Below, in pieces: positions 1 through 6,368 of a DNA stretch of 6,368 nt; positions within the stretch are counted from its first letter, which is position 1; each line of letters opens with the position of its first letter. The DNA is from a virus (lineage: Duplodnaviria > Heunggongvirae > Uroviricota > Caudoviricetes), in the IMG/VR virus record IMGVR_UViG_2563366822_000001; one strand, 5' to 3'. The position numbers were made by a program, and so were the translations under genes. The notes beneath the pieces are model-generated. The model ran no database searches and was not told the origin of the DNA. It saw nothing but the letters and a program-made list of their open reading frames with translations.

Positions 1-2093
1 AGAATTTCTGTCATCATGGACAGCACGGAACGGGTGAATCCCCGCCAGTTCTGTTCGCTGCCGGTCAGCATCGCCGCCATATTCTGTGCAATACCGTCAA
101 AGGTCTGCGTGGCCACACTTTTAACCTGCGAAAAACTGTCCGTCGCACTTTCCGCCCACTCTCCCCAGCCGGACTTCATCCCGGCCATCCAGCTTCCACG
201 AAGCTGCTCCTCCGCAGACCAGGTGTTCTTCAGTGCCGATGTGGCCTTCGCCAGCGCAGCCGGATTATCACCGTACACCTCACGAAGGCGCTGCTCTTCC
301 GACTCCCGCTGCGCCTGACGGTCGGTGAGGCCGCGGGCTTTTGCGCTGATTGCCGCCTGCTTCGCGCTTTGCTGCTGTTCAAACCGCGCCGCCTGCTGTG
401 CCAGCTCATTCAGCCGTTTCTGGTGTTCAACTTTGTCTCCCAGCTCAGCCAGCTGGCGTTTGTACTCCAGCGTCTCTTTCTCATGGGTCAGCAGGGATTT
501 TTCCTGCTCAGATAACTGCCGTTTCGTGGCTGCCTCTTTCAGGACCGCATACTGATTTTCCGCTTTCCATAAATCGCGACGCTGCTGGCTGATTTTCTCA
601 TTCGCACCGCTGTGTTTTTCCAGCGTCCGGAGCTCGGTTTCAAGCGCCAGCAGGGCAGCATGCGCCTGGTCTTCCTGACGCTCACCGGCTGACACTTTGA
701 CTCCTGACGACTTCGGCTTTTTCAGCGTCGATTCATAATCCTTTTTCGCCGCCGCCATCAGCGTGTTGTAATCCGCCTGCAGGATTTTCTCGTCTTTCAG
801 GGCCTTATTCAGTTCTTCCTGACGGGCGGTATATTTCTCCAGCGGCGTCAGCAGACGCTCATACGCCTTCTGCGCCTCTCCGGTATACTTCAGCTGTGAT
901 GCGTCCCGTTCGGCCCGGTCCCTGGCCGCCAGTTCACCGGCTTTTTCCATATCCGACTGCAGCGTGGCCGCTGCCAGACCCAGACGGGCATTTTCCCGGT
1001 CATCCCATGCCCCCTGAAGGTTCGCACGAAAAGAGGAGGTCTTTCCCCGGCGCTGGCTCCGGCTCTGGTACCACTGCCATTTTTTATCCGCCTCATCAAA
1101 TGCCTTCTGTGCACTGGCGAGCATATCCGCTGAGGATTCCGGACGACCGATATCCAGAATGGCATCCCACATCGATTTGAATGCCTTCCCTGTTTTATCC
1201 GCCCAGGTCTCCAGTGTTCCCATGTTTTCTTTCAGGCGACGGGTCTGCTCATCAAAGCCTTTCGTGGCGATATCGTTCGCCGCCTGCAATGCCCCGGCCT
1301 CGTCTCCGGAACGCTGCAGCTGTGCAACATACGCAATCTGCTCTGCCGTCACGTTACGGAACTGGCGCGCCATCGCCATCAGTCCCGACGTCGGGTCAGT
1401 GATCAGCTTCCCGAAGGCTTCAGCGACTTTATCCACCTCCACACCGGATGCAGACGCAAAACGCGCGACACTCTGGTTGATGGCATCAAACTGTTCACCA
1501 CCACGCACACCGGCATTCACCAGGGCTGCCAGTGACTCTCTCGCCTGGTTAAACGTCAGCCCTGCTGCCTGCCCGGCTCTTGAGAGCGTCAGCATACGAT
1601 CGGCAGTCAGTCCGGCCTGATTGCCGGAAAGGACCAGCGTTTTATTAAATTCTGAAAGCGTGGCGTCGCCCTGGTACCAGGCGTACGCCAGCGCACCTGT
1701 CGCCACCGCCAGCGAGGTGACCCCGACCATCGGCAGGGTGATCGCACCGGCAAGCCCCCTGAACATGGGGATCATCCCGCCGAAGGAGTCCTTCACCTGA
1801 CCGCCCTGTTGCAGCAGGATCAACCAGGGATTCTGACCACCGGCAAGCTGCGTGGCGATATCCGTAAACTGTGCGGGCAGGGTTCGCATGGCCGCTTTAT
1901 ACTGCCCGACGGAAATCCCGGCTTTTTGTGCAGCCAGCGCCTGGCGGCTCAGGCCCTGTTCAACAGCACTGGCGGTTTTTCTGGCGTCGGTATCCAGACC
2001 TGAAAAATGACGCCTTACCCGGCTCATCTGCTCATCGAAACGGACAGCATCCAGACTCAGGTCAATAACAAGATCACCAACCGGCTGGGACAT
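1..2093 (-). CDS. H: Tail tape measure protein (lambda gpH-like), partial: N-terminal ~697 codons, 3' end beyond window start
   Basis: Manual minus-strand translation from ATG at 2093..2091 stays open to position 1 (codon phase checked at both ends). It begins MSQPVGDLVIDLSLDAVRFDEQMSRVRRHFSGLD..., contains ...NPWLILLQQGGQVKDSFGGMIPMFRGLAGAITLPMVG... and ends ...QTFDGIAQNMAAMLTGSEQNWRGFTRSVLSMMTEI at the window edge; these match my recollection of lambda gpH. RBS GGGAGG about 7 nt upstream (rc of 2101..2108). The start lies inside the 3' end of T (20-nt overlap). It is absent from the ORF track only because its stop codon lies outside the window. Confidence 0.9.
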   Translation of the reverse strand, partial: MSQPVGDLVIDLSLDAVRFDEQMSRVRRHFSGLDTDARKTASAVEQGLSRQALAAQKAGISVGQYKAAMRTLPAQFTDIATQLAGGQNPWLILLQQGGQVKDSFGGMIPMFRGLAGAITLPMVGVTSLAVATGALAYAWYQGDATLSEFNKTLVLSGNQAGLTADRMLTLSRAGQAAGLTFNQARESLAALVNAGVRGGEQFDAINQSVARFASASGVEVDKVAEAFGKLITDPTSGLMAMARQFRNVTAEQIAYVAQLQRSGDEAGALQAANDIATKGFDEQTRRLKENMGTLETWADKTGKAFKSMWDAILDIGRPESSADMLASAQKAFDEADKKWQWYQSRSQRRGKTSSFRANLQGAWDDRENARLGLAAATLQSDMEKAGELAARDRAERDASQLKYTGEAQKAYERLLTPLEKYTARQEELNKALKDEKILQADYNTLMAAAKKDYESTLKKPKSSGVKVSAGERQEDQAHAALLALETELRTLEKHSGANEKISQQRRDLWKAENQYAVLKEAATKRQLSEQEKSLLTHEKETLEYKRQLAELGDKVEHQKRLNELAQQAARFEQQQSAKQAAISAKARGLTDRQAQRESEEQRLREVYGDNPAALAKATSALKNTWSAEEQLRGSWMAGMKSGWGEWAESATDSFSQVKSVATQTFDGIAQNMAAMLTGSEQNWRGFTRSVLSMMTEI

Positions 2094-2945
2094 ATCTCAC
2101 ACCTCCCGGAATCCCCGCTGAAGCCATCATTAATGCGGCATCATCCACCATGACATCCGCCACATCCGCAGACGATAAAATATCGCGCCCTCCGTCCCCA
2201 CCGAACCGGACGCCTCCGGCAAGTCCTGCCGCTTTCTGCATCAGCATTTTGTCCTCATCCGGCCTCTCCACCTGCTCTTCCTCATGCCGGGGGACAAGCA
2301 GACTGAAATCAGAGGGATGCATATCCGGATCGCAAAAAAACAGGCTGAGTACAGCGTACGTCAGCCCGGAAAAATGCATATCCAGCTGGGTATCCTGAAA
2401 ATAATGCGTGCGGTAAAAACGGTGCCAGTCGGCATATTCGGTGGATGTCATCCCGGCAAGCATGGCGCGCCAGTCGGGTCTCCCCATCTCACGCGCCAGT
2501 CTGAGGGCAAAGTTCAGCTCGCCGTCGAAGACTTTCCCGCAGAAAAATCATCATCAGTCAGCGTGTTATTTTTCGCCACTTCAGTAATATCAGTATCCGG
2601 ACGAACAGCTTCGATCATCCCGGACAGGCACAACACCACGTCTTCCGCCCGGGCAATGGCATCGGCAGGCCAGGTGGTGAGCACTTCCTGCTCTATCTTC
2701 ATCACGGCCTCATTCATTGACGGTGACTGCGTTTTCTGTGGATGGTTATGCCACAGGGACATCGCCACCAGAAACGCGCCGGTTCTGACGAGATCTTCCA
2801 CGCTTACCTGCAGGTTGCCGCAGGATTCTGCCTGTTCTGCACGCCGTTTCAGGAGGGCAAGATGCTCGATACGCTGCAGCGCAGACAATTCGGAAAGCGT
2901 GACAGACACACCGTTATATTCAAATTGTTCTGTTTTCAGAAACAT
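2074..2945 (-). CDS. G-T: Tail assembly chaperone G-T fusion product made by programmed -1 ribosomal frameshift (about 290 aa predicted)
   Basis: The G frame (from ATG 2945..2943) contains the heptamer G GGA AAG at 2538..2532 in the correct zero-frame phase. The -1 frame is open from that heptamer to TGA at 2076..2074 and reads GKVFDGELNFALRLAREMGRPDWRAMLAGMTSTEYADWHRFY...GGVRYVPAGW, which is lambda T-like. Gene order and mechanism match lambda G/G-T. Confidence 0.85.
2514..2945 (-). CDS. G: Tail assembly chaperone G (lambda gpG-like), 143 aa
   Basis: ORF MFLKTEQFEYNGVSVTLSELSALQRIEHLALLKRRAEQAES...AMSLWHNHPQKTQSPSMNEAVMKIEQEVLTTW...SAGKSSTAS; recognisable lambda gpG. RBS GGAGGT 5 nt upstream of the ATG (rc of 2951..2956). 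Lies directly downstream of V. Confidence 0.92.
   Translation of the reverse strand: MFLKTEQFEYNGVSVTLSELSALQRIEHLALLKRRAEQAESCGNLQVSVEDLVRTGAFLVAMSLWHNHPQKTQSPSMNEAVMKIEQEVLTTWPADAIARAEDVVLCLSGMIEAVRPDTDITEVAKNNTLTDDDFSAGKSSTAS
2532..2538 (-). other. Programmed -1 ribosomal frameshift slippery heptamer G GGA AAG (G to G-T recoding site)
   Basis: Plus-strand CTTTCCC at 2532..2538 is GGGAAAG on the minus strand, in X XXY YYZ phase within G codons ...GCG GGA AAG TCT..., 6 codons before the G stop. This is the same heptamer type used by lambda G-T. Confidence 0.8.
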
Positions 2946-2958
2946 GTATTACCTCCGT

Positions 2959-3711
2959 TTACCCTGCAGCGCCCGCTTCAGTAACGGTGACTTCAGCCAC
3001 TGCGGCGAACTGACCATTTCCGCTCACCACAGGGATCTGCACCTTACCTGTCGCCACGCCGTTTACCGTAATTGTCATATCTTTCACACTAATGGTGGCT
3101 TTCGACGGATCGGCGGAAACCGCTCTGAACGTCTTGTCGGTTGCACTTTCCGGCTCAAAAGAAACCGTCAGGGTGGTTGTTTTCCCTTTTGCCACCGTAC
3201 CGGATGTCGGCGTCACCTTAATCGCACTGACCGGCGTAATTTTGCTGCGTTCTTCCGCTACAGAAGGTTTACCCACGTTAGTGACTTTCACCGTGCGGGT
3301 GATCACTTCTTTCGCCGTCACGGCCTTACCGATACTGCTGACCCAGCCACGAAACACATCCACCGTGCCATTCGGAAAACGGATTTTATAGGCCCGGACA
3401 TCGCCGCTTTCAAACCAGCCTATAAGCCCTTTCTGGCCTTCCTCTCCCGGTTTCCAGGCCAGCGTAAAACTGGTATCACCTGCAGATTTCTGCCCCTGCC
3501 CGGTCGCGGTCCAGTCCGCGTCTTCATCATCCAGGTAGTTATCATCGTAGGATTCTGCCGTCATCTCGCCCGGCGTCAGATCCTTCACCTTAGCCAGTCG
3601 CTGCCAGTCATCGTCTGACAACGGGTTTGCATAAGCATCACCCTTGCCGTTGTAAACCCACAGAGTGGTACCGGCACCTTTTACCGGCTCAAGGGGATTT
3701 GGTGTTGCCAT
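2959..3711 (-). CDS. V: Major tail tube protein V (lambda gpV-like), 250 aa, with C-terminal Ig-like region
   Basis: [89 protein letters not shown]...[36 protein letters not shown]...; long stretches match lambda gpV as I recall it. ATG at 3711..3709 with GAGGA RBS; stop TAA at 2961..2959. Confidence 0.95.
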
Positions 3712-3718
3712 ATCGTCC

Positions 3719-4114
3719 TCACATCTCGTATGTAATGGAATAAGTCAGATCTGCAGAACTCCATAACGCCATATCGTCATCACGACGATACTCATAGCCC
3801 TGCGTAACCATCGTGGTAATCAGTCCTGCCAGTGCCGGGATCGCGGTCATCGCCGGGTAAATCCGGCTTTCCATCCACTGATCAAGCTCTGAATCCGGTA
3901 CCTGTGCCGGTAAAAACACCTCAATATGCAGCGTGGCCCGCCAGGTATCTGCATCCAGCTCTTCACCGGTATACTCTGCATCCGTCAGATAAACCGCGAT
4001 CGCAGGAAAATCCTCTTCGTCAAAAACAACGGGGCGACCATCAAACAGCGTCGCCCCGTGTTCATGCTGCTCGAGTGCATCCAGCACTGCGGCACGAATG
4101 TCAGTGTGTTTCAT
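3719..4114 (-). CDS. U: Tail terminator protein U (lambda gpU-like), 131 aa
   Basis: [90 protein letters not shown]...[23 protein letters not shown]; near-collinear with lambda gpU (131 aa). Its start overlaps the Z stop as ATGA (4111..4114). Confidence 0.95.
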
Positions 4115-4644
4115 CGTTTTATTGCAATCCTCAGTTGTTGTTTCAGCGCGTATGCCAGTTCTTTAGGCAGGCGTTCACGCCGGATACGGTCAACATTCTC
4201 ATCAAATGCCTGTTTCAGTGGGGCCGCCATCGGGATTTTCACCACATCAATGGGGTAACGGTTTTTCCCGGCCACACGCTGCATGACATGCCAGCGACCA
4301 TTTTTTAATCGCTGAATAAATGCCCGCTGATACCGATGCTGACCGGCTTTGAGTATGCTGTCCGGACGACGCCCCGGCATCCTGATCCCCAGCTTAATCA
4401 CAGGGAGATCACCGCGGTTAACGATAATTCTGGCATTCGGATTTCTGACCGTCGCCCGTTTCAGTCTGGACCGTTCCTTAACCAGTTTCCGGCGAACCTT
4501 TGTCTCCCGGGCAACCTGTGATGAAGACTGATTAATCGCCGTTGTGGCCACGCGGTTAATGGCCATTGCTGAAGCCGCCGGAATGGCGTTTTTACGAACC
4601 CGGCTCAGATTGTCAATCGCCTGATCAAGCCCTTTTATCGCCAT
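4111..4644 (-). CDS. Z: Tail completion protein Z (lambda gpZ-like), 177 aa
   Basis: ORF MAIKGLDQAIDNLSRVRKNAIPAASAMAINRVATTAINQSSSQVARETKVRRKLVKERSRLKRATVRNPNARIIVNRGDLPVIKLG...AFIQRLKNGRWHVMQRVAGKNRYPIDVVKIPMAAPL...[25 protein letters not shown]; N- and C-terminal thirds match lambda gpZ as I recall it. ATG at 4644..4642, 15 nt after the FII stop. Confidence 0.93.
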   Translation of the reverse strand: MAIKGLDQAIDNLSRVRKNAIPAASAMAINRVATTAINQSSSQVARETKVRRKLVKERSRLKRATVRNPNARIIVNRGDLPVIKLGIRMPGRRPDSILKAGQHRYQRAFIQRLKNGRWHVMQRVAGKNRYPIDVVKIPMAAPLKQAFDENVDRIRRERLPKELAYALKQQLRIAIKR

Positions 4645-4659
4645 AATTTCACCCTGCGT

Positions 4660-5013
4660 TTATCGTCGCCGGTTAACTGCGGGTGGTTGACCACGGTTGA
4701 GCCACAGATAACAGCTGCCCCCGTCATCCGGAGAAACACGATCCACCCAGAATATCTCACCATTAATGGTCAGCGTGTCACCACGCCGCACGGCACGAAC
4801 CGTATCCGTCCGCACAAATAATGACGGGCTGCTTCCTTCAATACGGACCCCGCCACCGGCAAACCCCAGCGACTCCGGATCATCAAAAACCCCCTGAACT
4901 TCGCTGCCACACTGTGCCCCCGAGGTGAACTGCGCACAGAGCCCCATCACTTCAACGATCGTACTGTCTACCCCGGCGAGGGCAGCATCAAAGGCATTCT
5001 GAAAATCACGCAT
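4660..5013 (-). CDS. FII: Head-tail joining protein FII (lambda gpFII-like), 117 aa
   Basis: ORF MRDFQNAFDAALAGVDSTIVEVMGLCAQFTSGAQCGSEVQGVFDDPESLGFAGGGVRIEGSSPSLFVRTDTVRAVRRGDTLTINGEIFWVDRVSPDDGGSCYLWLNRGQPPAVNRRR; same length as lambda gpFII and with a near-identical C-terminal half. ATG at 5013..5011 overlaps the FI stop by 8 nt. Confidence 0.95.
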   Translation of the reverse strand: MRDFQNAFDAALAGVDSTIVEVMGLCAQFTSGAQCGSEVQGVFDDPESLGFAGGGVRIEGSSPSLFVRTDTVRAVRRGDTLTINGEIFWVDRVSPDDGGSCYLWLNRGQPPAVNRRR

Positions 5014-5389
5014 ATTCAGCCGTTCCGTGCTGTATCATGGCCGTTGCCAGTGATGATGGCACCAGAACACGCATACCCCGTAACGCCAGCTCAACGGGAC
5101 GACCTGTCTCCGGGCAATACCCCATTACTTGCAGGCACTTCCGTACCCGGACGGCTTTAACATCATCCGGAGCATCCGTGTTGTTCAACTGCTCACCATC
5201 GTCTGTGTGATTTTGATCAGCCCCGCTCTCATCAGAGTGCATAATGCCCTCCGGGGAAACAGCAAGCTCCTCTTCCCACTCAGACACACGTTGAGCAATA
5301 TCCGCAGCACTCCCCGACATATCCGCCTCGCGCCCCAGCAGGTCAGCCAGTTGACGAAGACGATTCAGATTTTCTTCTTTTGTTGCCAT
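5006..5389 (-). CDS. FI: FI-like head protein (DNA packaging/head stabilisation accessory protein), 127 aa from the ATG at 5389
   Basis: Positional equivalent of lambda FI between E and FII. Product MATKEENLNRLRQLADLLGREADMSGSAADIAQRVSEWEEELAVSPEGIMHSDESGADQNHTDDGEQLNNTDAPDDVKAVRV...LVPSSLATAMIQHGTAEYA has FI-like size and architecture (helical N-terminus, acidic linker, small C-terminal domain), but sequence similarity to lambda FI is weak from memory. Start chosen at ATG 5389..5387 because a perfect AGGAGG lies 5 nt upstream (rc of 5395..5400); the track's longer ORF (to 5437) would start at GTG inside the upstream hairpin. Confidence 0.72.
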   Translation of the reverse strand: MATKEENLNRLRQLADLLGREADMSGSAADIAQRVSEWEEELAVSPEGIMHSDESGADQNHTDDGEQLNNTDAPDDVKAVRVRKCLQVMGYCPETGRPVELALRGMRVLVPSSLATAMIQHGTAEYA

Positions 5390-5403
5390 CTCAGCCTCCT
5401 GTG

Positions 5404-5432
5404 AAAAAAGACACGGGGGCATTTCGCCCCCG
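5404..5432 (-). terminator. Putative intrinsic (rho-independent) terminator or stabilising hairpin downstream of the major capsid gene
   Basis: Minus strand reads ...AG CGGGGGC GAAAT GCCCCCG TGTC TTTTTT CAC...: a 7-bp all-GC stem (plus 5426..5432 pairing with 5414..5420), a 5-nt loop, and a T6 tract (plus 5404..5409) 4 nt after the stem. It lies 9 nt after the E stop and immediately before the FI Shine-Dalgarno. Confidence 0.45.
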
Positions 5433-5440
5433 CTCACGGA

Positions 5441-6368
5441 TTATTTCACCTGTACCACCACAAACTCATCCGGGTCCGGCAACACCATCAGCGGCGCGGA
5501 CTGCGTCATGGTAAATTCACGGGCGGGATCCCCCACCGTCAGCCAGTGTTTCGGATAACGGGAAGAGGCCACCACACCTTCGGACAACGCCTGCGCATCC
5601 TGAATGGCACCGTAACAACGGATCCCATCTGCAGCAGTATTCCCCAGAACCAGCATGCCCTCCGGCAGATAACGTTTTTCGATACCGTCTTCTGCTATAT
5701 AAGACGTTTTCGCCACCACAATGGCCAGATCGCCGTAATACCCCTTGAAGGACACCACTGCGCCCAGATCTTTCACTGCCGTTTCGAGTTGAGAATTTGA
5801 ACCGCGACGGGTATCCAGTTTTTCGCGGAACAGCTTAAAACCATTCAGAAGACGCCAGACGGTACCGTCCATAATGGCAATATTCACAAGACCGCTGGCC
5901 TGGTCGCAGTAGAGGTCAATATCATGTGTAGGATCGAACGTGTCACGATCCTGTTTTGACCACTCCTTACCACTACCCTGAGTGATGTTATTCTTCGTCG
6001 ACCTGCCAAAATCGACCTCAATTTTCTCGAACTGGTCTCCTTCCATCGTATATTTGCCATACAACACAGCATTTACCGCCTGTATTTCTTCCACCTGGAC
6101 AATCGCGTGCTCTTCCTGTTTGAGGTTATCGGTAATGATACGCAGACGGCGGTAAGCCGGATCGTTCAGTTGAGCCGGATCTTCACCAGGAAGGCGCTCA
6201 ACCGCCTGCTGGTAATTAAATTCGTGTTTCGGCTTGACGTAGCCCGGACGTAACACGCGGGTTTCACCACCACGATGACGCAGCACTTTTCCTTCAACAA
6301 CCGGGGAGACATAGGCCGCCACCGGCGTTTTTCCGGTAATTTTGTCCAGCATCACCTCTTCGGTATGG
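5441..6368 (-). CDS. E: Major capsid protein (lambda gpE-like), partial: N-terminus beyond window end
   Basis: The frame is open from the window edge (6368) to TAA at 5443..5441. Translation ...AAYVSPVVEGKVLRHRGGETRVLRPGYVKPKHEFNYQQAVERLPGEDPAQLNDPAYRRLRI...EKLDTRRGSNSQLETAVKDLGAVVSFKGYYGDLAIVV...GDPAREFTMTQSAPLMVLPDPDEFVVVQVK shares conserved blocks with lambda gpE (YVSP, PGYVKPKHE, DPAYRRxRI, KLDTRRGSNSxLETAVKDLG, TGDPAREFTMxQSAPLM, DPDEFVxVQ). The track's start at 6355 is a GTG artefact; the true start is upstream of the window. Confidence 0.92.
   Translation of the reverse strand, partial: HTEEVMLDKITGKTPVAAYVSPVVEGKVLRHRGGETRVLRPGYVKPKHEFNYQQAVERLPGEDPAQLNDPAYRRLRIITDNLKQEEHAIVQVEEIQAVNAVLYGKYTMEGDQFEKIEVDFGRSTKNNITQGSGKEWSKQDRDTFDPTHDIDLYCDQASGLVNIAIMDGTVWRLLNGFKLFREKLDTRRGSNSQLETAVKDLGAVVSFKGYYGDLAIVVAKTSYIAEDGIEKRYLPEGMLVLGNTAADGIRCYGAIQDAQALSEGVVASSRYPKHWLTVGDPAREFTMTQSAPLMVLPDPDEFVVVQVK

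Follow-up and report, generated by a model that had tools for sequence, protein, structure and literature searches.

A predicted programmed -1 frameshift between the tail assembly chaperone genes G and T of a lambda-like Escherichia prophage

The 6,368-nucleotide (nt) stretch of viral DNA analysed here (IMG/VR virus record IMGVR_UViG_2563366822_000001; the window, below) carries the head-tail module of a lambda-like Escherichia prophage. Between V, its tail tube gene, and H, its tape measure gene, lie two overlapping reading frames, G and T, and the window very probably encodes a programmed -1 frameshift at the heptamer G GGA AAG that would join them into a G-T tail assembly chaperone fusion. 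All coordinates given below are on the minus strand. An earlier note on this DNA had proposed that a frameshift yields such a fusion, and that proposal is supported by the homology of both frames to lambda G and T, by the position of the pair between V and H, by the identity of the site with that of lambda and by comparative evidence for selection on the signal. Because the site and the proteins are homologous to those of lambda, we infer the same mechanism here.

The slippery heptamer and the two frames of G and T

G occupies 2945..2514 in the zero frame, encodes 143 amino acids (aa) and has a C-terminus that reads ...DDDFSAGKSSTAS. At the site in question the minus strand reads GAT GAT TTT TCT GCG GGA AAG TCT TCG ACG GCG AGC TGA, in which the heptamer GGGAAAG (2538..2532) can be read directly in the phase G GGA AAG (X XXY YYZ), within the zero-frame codons GCG GGA AAG (A-G-K), and is followed in frame 0 by five sense codons (TCT TCG ACG GCG AGC) and then by the G stop, TGA 2516..2514. 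The T frame is open over 2547..2074, being closed on its 5' side by a TGA at 2550..2548, 9 nt upstream of the heptamer, and on its 3' side by a TGA at 2076..2074. A productive -1 shift is possible only in the 34 nt from 2547 to 2514, the 5' limit of which is set by the TGA at 2550..2548, and within this overlap of the G and T frames GGGAAAG is the only canonical heptamer. Read from base 2532, which would be read twice in G-T, the -1 frame (GTC TTC GAC...) translates as VFDGELNFALRLAREMGRPDW...GVRYVPAGW, so that the T part of the fusion (2532..2074, VFDGELNF...PAGW) consists of 152 sense codons with no internal stop, and the fusion itself would be 138 + 152 = 290 aa long. The T frame ends inside H, whose ATG lies at 2093..2091, giving an overlap of 20 nt (2074..2093). 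The earlier note had placed the heptamer in the correct phase near the G stop, had given G and G-T as 143 and about 290 aa, and had described a -1 frame open for about 150 codons, free of stops between 2538 and 2076 and ending 20 nt inside H; all of its numbers proved correct.

Both frames have recognizable relatives. The G protein matches the Pfam family PF06894 Phage_TAC_2 (E=5e-51) and lambda G (69% aa identity, E=7e-67), and its RefSeq name is "phage tail assembly chaperone G"; the -1-frame segment matches the Pfam family PF06223 Phage_tail_T (E=4e-14), and T matches lambda T (73% aa identity, E=1e-75). The DNA around the slip site, TTTCTGCGGGAAAGT, is the same in the window and in lambda, and in the lambda record the T coding sequence starts at the final base of the heptamer.

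The window thus shares with lambda the heptamer G GGA AAG and its phase, the 15 nt around it, the distance from it to the G stop, the position between V and H, and the homologous G and T genes. It differs in having a G longer by 3 aa, which has diverged over the 30 C-terminal residues preceding the site, and a T of 152 rather than 144 aa, the 8 additional residues lying partly in a C-terminal extension (...GVRYVPAGW). Because T is 8 aa longer, its overlap with H is longer as well, 20 nt in the window against 8 nt in lambda. The claim that the heptamer had been kept while its flanks diverged therefore stands in part. Divergence from lambda does begin about 8 nt upstream and extends through those last 30 residues of G, but the immediate flanks have not diverged at all, since the identity with lambda at the site runs over 15 nt (TTTCTGC-GGGAAAG-T), and on the downstream side the need to encode the conserved T N-terminus imposes a constraint.

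The heptamer as a bare motif is unremarkable in frequency. GGGAAAG occurs twice in the window against an expectation of 1.16, and because of this the case rests on the context of the site rather than on the motif. That context is distinctive: this is the sole canonical heptamer in the overlap, its position corresponds by homology to that of the mapped lambda site, and a shift-prone heptamer is found at 230 of 230 homologous sites. We estimate that an in-phase XXXYYYZ would arise by chance somewhere in the 11-codon G/T overlap with a probability of about 4% (11 x 1/256).

If the site functions as its lambda counterpart does, most ribosomes on G would read GCG GGA AAG and five more codons and would terminate at 2516..2514, releasing the 143-aa G protein. 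A small fraction would slip by -1, with tRNA-Gly and tRNA-Lys on GGA and AAG re-pairing with GGG and AAA, and would then translate the -1 frame through 2074 to produce the 290-aa G-T. On the lambda model, H, the tape measure protein, would be coated by the G portions of both products, the tube protein V would be recruited by the T portion of the fusion, and both G and G-T would be absent from the virion. In lambda itself, low-level -1 frameshifting sets a G:GT ratio of about 30:1, on which tail assembly critically depends; G attaches to the tape measure protein, as does the G portion of GT, whose T portion attaches to the tube protein; both G and GT are missing from the virion; and in E. coli the heptamer G_GGA_AAG is highly prone to shifting (PMC5009743; the lambda G/G-T frameshift is described by Levin, Hendrix & Casjens 1993 and by Xu, Hendrix & Duda 2004, 2013 and 2014, cited through PMC5009743). 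About 96% of ribosomes remain in frame at the lambda site (PMC3296357), the slipping fraction being about 3-4%, and the slip rate depends on modification of tRNA-Lys, hypomodified tRNA-Lys raising the rate and harming the phage (PMC3296357; PMC7618472). Transcriptional slippage on GGGAAAG was considered as another route into the T frame and rejected, as the site has no long homopolymer run, a judgement that draws on inference and on the lambda literature.

The predicted fusion also dictates how it could be recognized in proteomics. The junction contains a K, at which trypsin cuts, so a tryptic digest cannot give the junction peptide SAGK/VFDGELNF. The diagnostic tryptic peptide for G-T would be VFDGELNFALR, and a peptide that spans the junction requires Glu-C, Asp-N or chymotrypsin.

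Selection on the recoding signal and on the T frame

The comparison drew on 12 diverged phage records, obtained by tblastn of a phage collection, and on loci of a viral collection found with degenerate DNA patterns, and the heptamer survey covered 230 homologous sites with 75 distinct sequences. A shift-prone heptamer occupies the homologous position in all 230, and every one of these ends in A AAR, which is read by tRNA-Lys. GGGAAAG is found at 193 of the sites, GGAAAAG at 19 and AAAAAAG at 16, with GGGAAAA and AGGAAAG at a single site each. The AGGAAAG variant (GCA GGA AAG, in viral contig L147) has lost the first X, and the GGGAAAA variant was found in a phi80-like background; these two may reflect sequencing error, a weakened site or variation that is tolerated.

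In the more distant relatives the heptamer has been exchanged for other shift-prone heptamers and not for non-slippery ones. Phages cdtI, Tritos and Providencia phage PSTCR8lys, whose G proteins are 28-39% identical, carry G GAA AAG 1-2 codons before the G stop. N15 (gp14/gp15) and phi80 (G/G-T) share with the window the homologous genes, the alignment position of the slip site, a G stop in a conserved GAGCTGA and a predicted hairpin, and their records label the homologous position as a -1 slippery sequence; they differ in their heptamer, G GAA AAG, which allows imperfect re-pairing in the P-site, in a G protein that is 41-52% identical, and in having TTC at the position of the ATG from which pipelines start the T gene of the window. 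The Stx-converting lambdoid phages have the homologous site, the same gene order and the same length of -1 overlap, with the difference that their heptamer is A AAA AAG, classically more slippery, and their G is 45-48% identical.

Variation at synonymous positions points to constraint on the signal itself. The eight frame-0 third positions directly upstream of the heptamer average about 1.2 bits of entropy, and the three within it have 0.49, 0 and 0.10 bits, the first of these covarying with the next base in such a way that X XX is kept. Among 51 distinct sequences of the GGGAAAG type there was no synonymous change at GGA or at AAG, and one additional haplotype reads GGGAAAA, with the Lys codon AAA.

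An internal control for these observations is provided by the second GGGAAAG of the window, which lies inside H (1047..1041) and is likewise in the phase G GGA AAG (CGG GGA AAG, peptide RRGK). There the -1 frame closes after 15 codons (..GKDLLFSCEPSGGMG*), and a slip would truncate the tape measure protein at about 365 aa; this heptamer probably costs the phage a small loss of H at most. It is not conserved, relatives encoding the H peptide RRGKT as CGC GGT AAA or CGG GGA AAA. Because the copy in H is not conserved while the copy at G/T is fixed, GGGAAAG appears to decay freely where it serves no purpose. The earlier note's claim of purifying selection on the recoding signal itself is upheld by this decaying control, together with the missing synonymous changes and the replacement heptamers, and the comparative sequences offer a clean illustration of such selection, in which three heptamers stand in for one another at one site and a copy 1.5 kilobases (kb) away is free of constraint.

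The same positions bear on whether the shift needs a tandem slip at all. The ribosome could instead enter the -1 frame within the overlap through a single-tRNA slip on A AAG or on the T-run GAT TTT TCT (2547..2541). The -1 frame does open just 5' of this T-run, and the imperfect P-site pairing of the G GAA AAG heptamers of the N15 and phi80 type suggests that A AAG is the essential core of the signal. The T-run, however, is not conserved, lambda having CCT GTT TCT in its place, and the three frame-0-synonymous positions of the heptamer are either invariant or change together in ways that preserve X XXY YYZ, which is documented as highly shift-prone in E. coli in its G_GGA_AAG form (PMC5009743). 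We regard a shift of this kind as improbable and favour the tandem slip on G GGA AAG.

The pattern of variation changes downstream of the heptamer. The variable columns there are the third positions of the -1 frame, including those in the 45 nt leading up to the first ATG in the T frame, with the caveat that some columns downstream of the heptamer were fixed by the search pattern. Because high variability moves from frame-0 to -1-frame third positions, the coding frame as evolution sees it switches at the heptamer.

Several points weigh against a programmed frameshift at this site. The sampled loci are mostly closely related Escherichia prophages, which makes the 230 sites anything but independent. 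Protein constraint on the T N-terminus confounds the conservation seen downstream of the heptamer. Neither the intactness nor the expression of the prophage can be judged from a window of 6.4 kb. Since many E. coli prophages are defective, the two frames could in principle be the remains of a gene broken by a frameshift mutation in a cryptic prophage. This we find scarcely credible, because the same two-frame layout with a shift-prone heptamer recurs in lambda, N15, phi80 and all 230 of the sampled sites, both frames retain intact Pfam domains, and no relative with G and T in one uninterrupted frame was seen among those 230 sites.

The last point against a programmed frameshift is the existence of a separate ATG in the T frame, at 2487, which current pipelines use. 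From it runs an open reading frame (ORF) of 137 aa (2487..2074), and exactly this ORF is the RefSeq/PGAP call, made without slippage, for T in an E. coli prophage that is 98.9% identical to the window; the expectation that pipelines would annotate T as a small ORF of its own at 2074..2487 is borne out. Separate T genes are also found in GenBank, and the exact 143-aa G and 137-aa T proteins each occur on at least 1000 contigs of a 15-billion-protein collection. T could then be an independent gene, translated from its own ATG, and the heptamer incidental.

The evidence around that ATG makes an independent T gene very unlikely. The 45 nt from the heptamer to the ATG evolve with the codon periodicity of the -1 frame, and the peptide they would encode (V/A-F/L-D/E/A-G/S-E-L-x-F-A/V-L/M-x-L-A-R-E) is conserved among the lambda, Stx, N15 and phi80 types. 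The ATG itself is replaced by TTC (Phe) in relatives of the N15 and phi80 type, the annotated start of T varies among GenBank records, and no Shine-Dalgarno-like sequence stands at a proper distance, as GCGCGTGAG stands immediately before the ATG. In addition, the predicted hairpin described below contains this ATG, and published work on lambda reports the G-T fusion and no T product of its own (PMC5009743). We therefore read the ORF at 2487..2074 as an annotation artefact and not as an independent gene, and the programmed frameshift as the probable source of T.

A candidate hairpin downstream of the heptamer

Lambda-type frameshifting may involve more than a bare heptamer. A candidate 3' stimulatory hairpin is predicted at 2524..2454, starting 7 nt after the heptamer, inside the 5-9 nt expected for a dnaX-like stimulator; such a spacing is usual for 3' stimulators (PMC5009743). 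In the predicted fold an outer stem of 8 base pairs (2524..2517 with 2461..2454) encloses an inner stem, in which UGGCGCGU (2498..2491) is paired with GCGCGCCA (2470..2463), and an apical stem (2489..2483 with 2478..2472). The 92 nt after the heptamer fold with a minimum free energy of -40.5 kcal/mol (z=-3.27). Such a GC-rich hairpin may raise the slip rate, and of the steps in the proposed mechanism this is a weakly supported one.

Several results favour the hairpin. The same consensus fold is predicted for 8 diverged relatives, among them lambda, Stx, N15, HK225, phi80 and mEp043 types, with z-scores of -2.4 in lambda and -4.4 in N15. In 7 of the 8 relatives the native sequence is more stable than synonymous recodings that keep the T peptide (z from -1.7 to -3.0), and in the remaining one z is -0.4. 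From V to H, the hairpin segment is among the best 4 of 209 overlapping 92-nt segments. At the pair 2523:2455 the distinct sequences have G:C in 33 cases, A:U in 25 and G:U in 1, with no mismatch in any, and G:C is found in one N15-like lineage; at position 2455, the third base of an Ala codon, the viral collection gave 0 matches with a purine and at least 120 with a pyrimidine.

Other results count against it. Most of the pairs are invariant, and double changes occur in 2 of the 22 pairs, where controls with slid partners give 0 to 3. Covariation was accordingly rejected as decisive proof of the hairpin, the slid-partner controls yielding as many double changes. The apical pair 61:70 is often broken, the sequences compared are closely related, and in the scan of 209 segments two other regions of the window fold equally well or better. 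These are 2404..2289 inside T and 1696..1605 inside H, which are stronger relative to shuffled sequences (z about -4.9 and -4.4); the former contains two copies of GGATATGCAT, which encode LDMHF and PDMHP. The folding test found no significant hairpin in the distant relatives cdtI, Tritos and PSTCR8lys, and Rfam has no family for the region, giving chance-level matches only.

The frameshift cassette of E. coli dnaX, a further system close to this one, combines A AAA AAG with an upstream Shine-Dalgarno-like element and a 3' stem-loop. The slip predicted here, like that of dnaX, is a tandem one ending on A AAG and tRNA-Lys, and the stem-loop a few nt downstream of the window heptamer is a candidate for the same role as that of dnaX (PMC5009743). 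The window differs from dnaX in having no upstream element of this kind about 10 nt 5' of its heptamer, no AGGAGG-like sequence being found in ACGCTGACTGATGATGATTTTTCTGC, and its expected efficiency is a few percent against about 50-80% for dnaX.

With the points on either side weighed, we take the hairpin at 2524..2454 as a plausible candidate for a stimulator, tentatively and with the odds against it. Levin et al. reportedly saw a modest downstream effect in lambda and left the structure undefined. It is conceivable, though again doubtful, that the lambda-type site is more than a bare heptamer and includes a hairpin conserved across the lambda, Stx, N15 and phi80 types, embedded in the coding sequence for the conserved T N-terminus (ELxFxLxLARExGRPDWRAMLAG) and tuning the ratio of G to G-T. 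RNA structure would in that case restrict synonymous change in T, for example at the Ala codon whose last base is 2455.

Gene order, related prophages and the meaning of the site

Pfam matches and the RefSeq annotation of the 98.9%-identical E. coli prophage agree in identifying the window as a lambda-type head-tail module, with the order E, FI, FII, Z, U, V, G, T, H. The major capsid gene E (6355..5441) is cut by the end of the window and is followed by FI (about 5389..5006), FII (5013..4660), Z (4644..4111) and U (4114..3719), all assigned as parts of the Pfam/RefSeq module. V (3711..2959) encodes the tail tube protein with a C-terminal Big_2 domain (Pfam Phage_TTP_12, E=2e-69; Big_2, E=3e-18), and because V is the upstream neighbour the context of G and T is fixed. 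H, the tape measure gene (2093..1; Pfam TMP_2, E=3e-69, and Tape_meas_lam_C), runs off the window, and the start used here (2093..2091) is also that of the RefSeq annotation. The flanking of the two overlapping frames by V upstream and H downstream is the same in the RefSeq gene order. The ORF list starts FI at a GTG (5437..5006, 143 aa), the RefSeq start being an ATG near 5389 (127 aa, MATKEENL...), and the end of FI overlaps the start of FII by 8 nt (5013..5006).

This kind of prophage is common. The nearest phage records, at 99%, belong to Escherichia phage 204576 and the PhiR12 series, the G protein is identical in Escherichia albertii NBRC 107761, and window-like sequence is present in about 4000 of 5426 complete E. 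coli genomes. Scans with the G protein added little diversity, viral contigs giving only loci 98-100% identical and genome contigs giving mostly lambda-identical matches of low coverage in unrelated taxa.

Among the latter, genes resembling lambda G were seen on short contigs of unrelated assemblies (Neobacillus, Kitasatospora, Shewanella, Pseudomonas, Paenibacillus, Leeuwenhoekiella and others). These stray genes are 69% identical to the G of the window, as lambda G is, and the names of several of the contigs give a coverage of about 1x; a lambda-like G is also present in a 48.4-kb "Campylobacter phage" record (MW057783.1, CJLB-4). The lambda-like G on unrelated contigs looks like lambda DNA contamination of public assemblies.

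The treatment of G and T in public records is uneven. The position of the T start differs among GenBank records, and slippage is annotated in some of them only, phi80 and HK630 having a joined G-T and N15 a marked slippery sequence. The 290-aa fusion was absent from the 15-billion-protein collection and from the one RefSeq record inspected.

The site described here is the textbook lambda case, already known biology, in a prophage family carried by most E. coli genomes, and it adds nothing biologically new to the lambda paradigm. The main value of the finding lies in annotation, since at least a thousand contigs carry the G/T pair annotated as two genes. Because the 290-aa product is missing from the records, proteomics and phage engineering that rely on present annotations will miss G-T. 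Should the candidate hairpin downstream of the heptamer turn out to be functional, the textbook account of the lambda site would gain a refinement.

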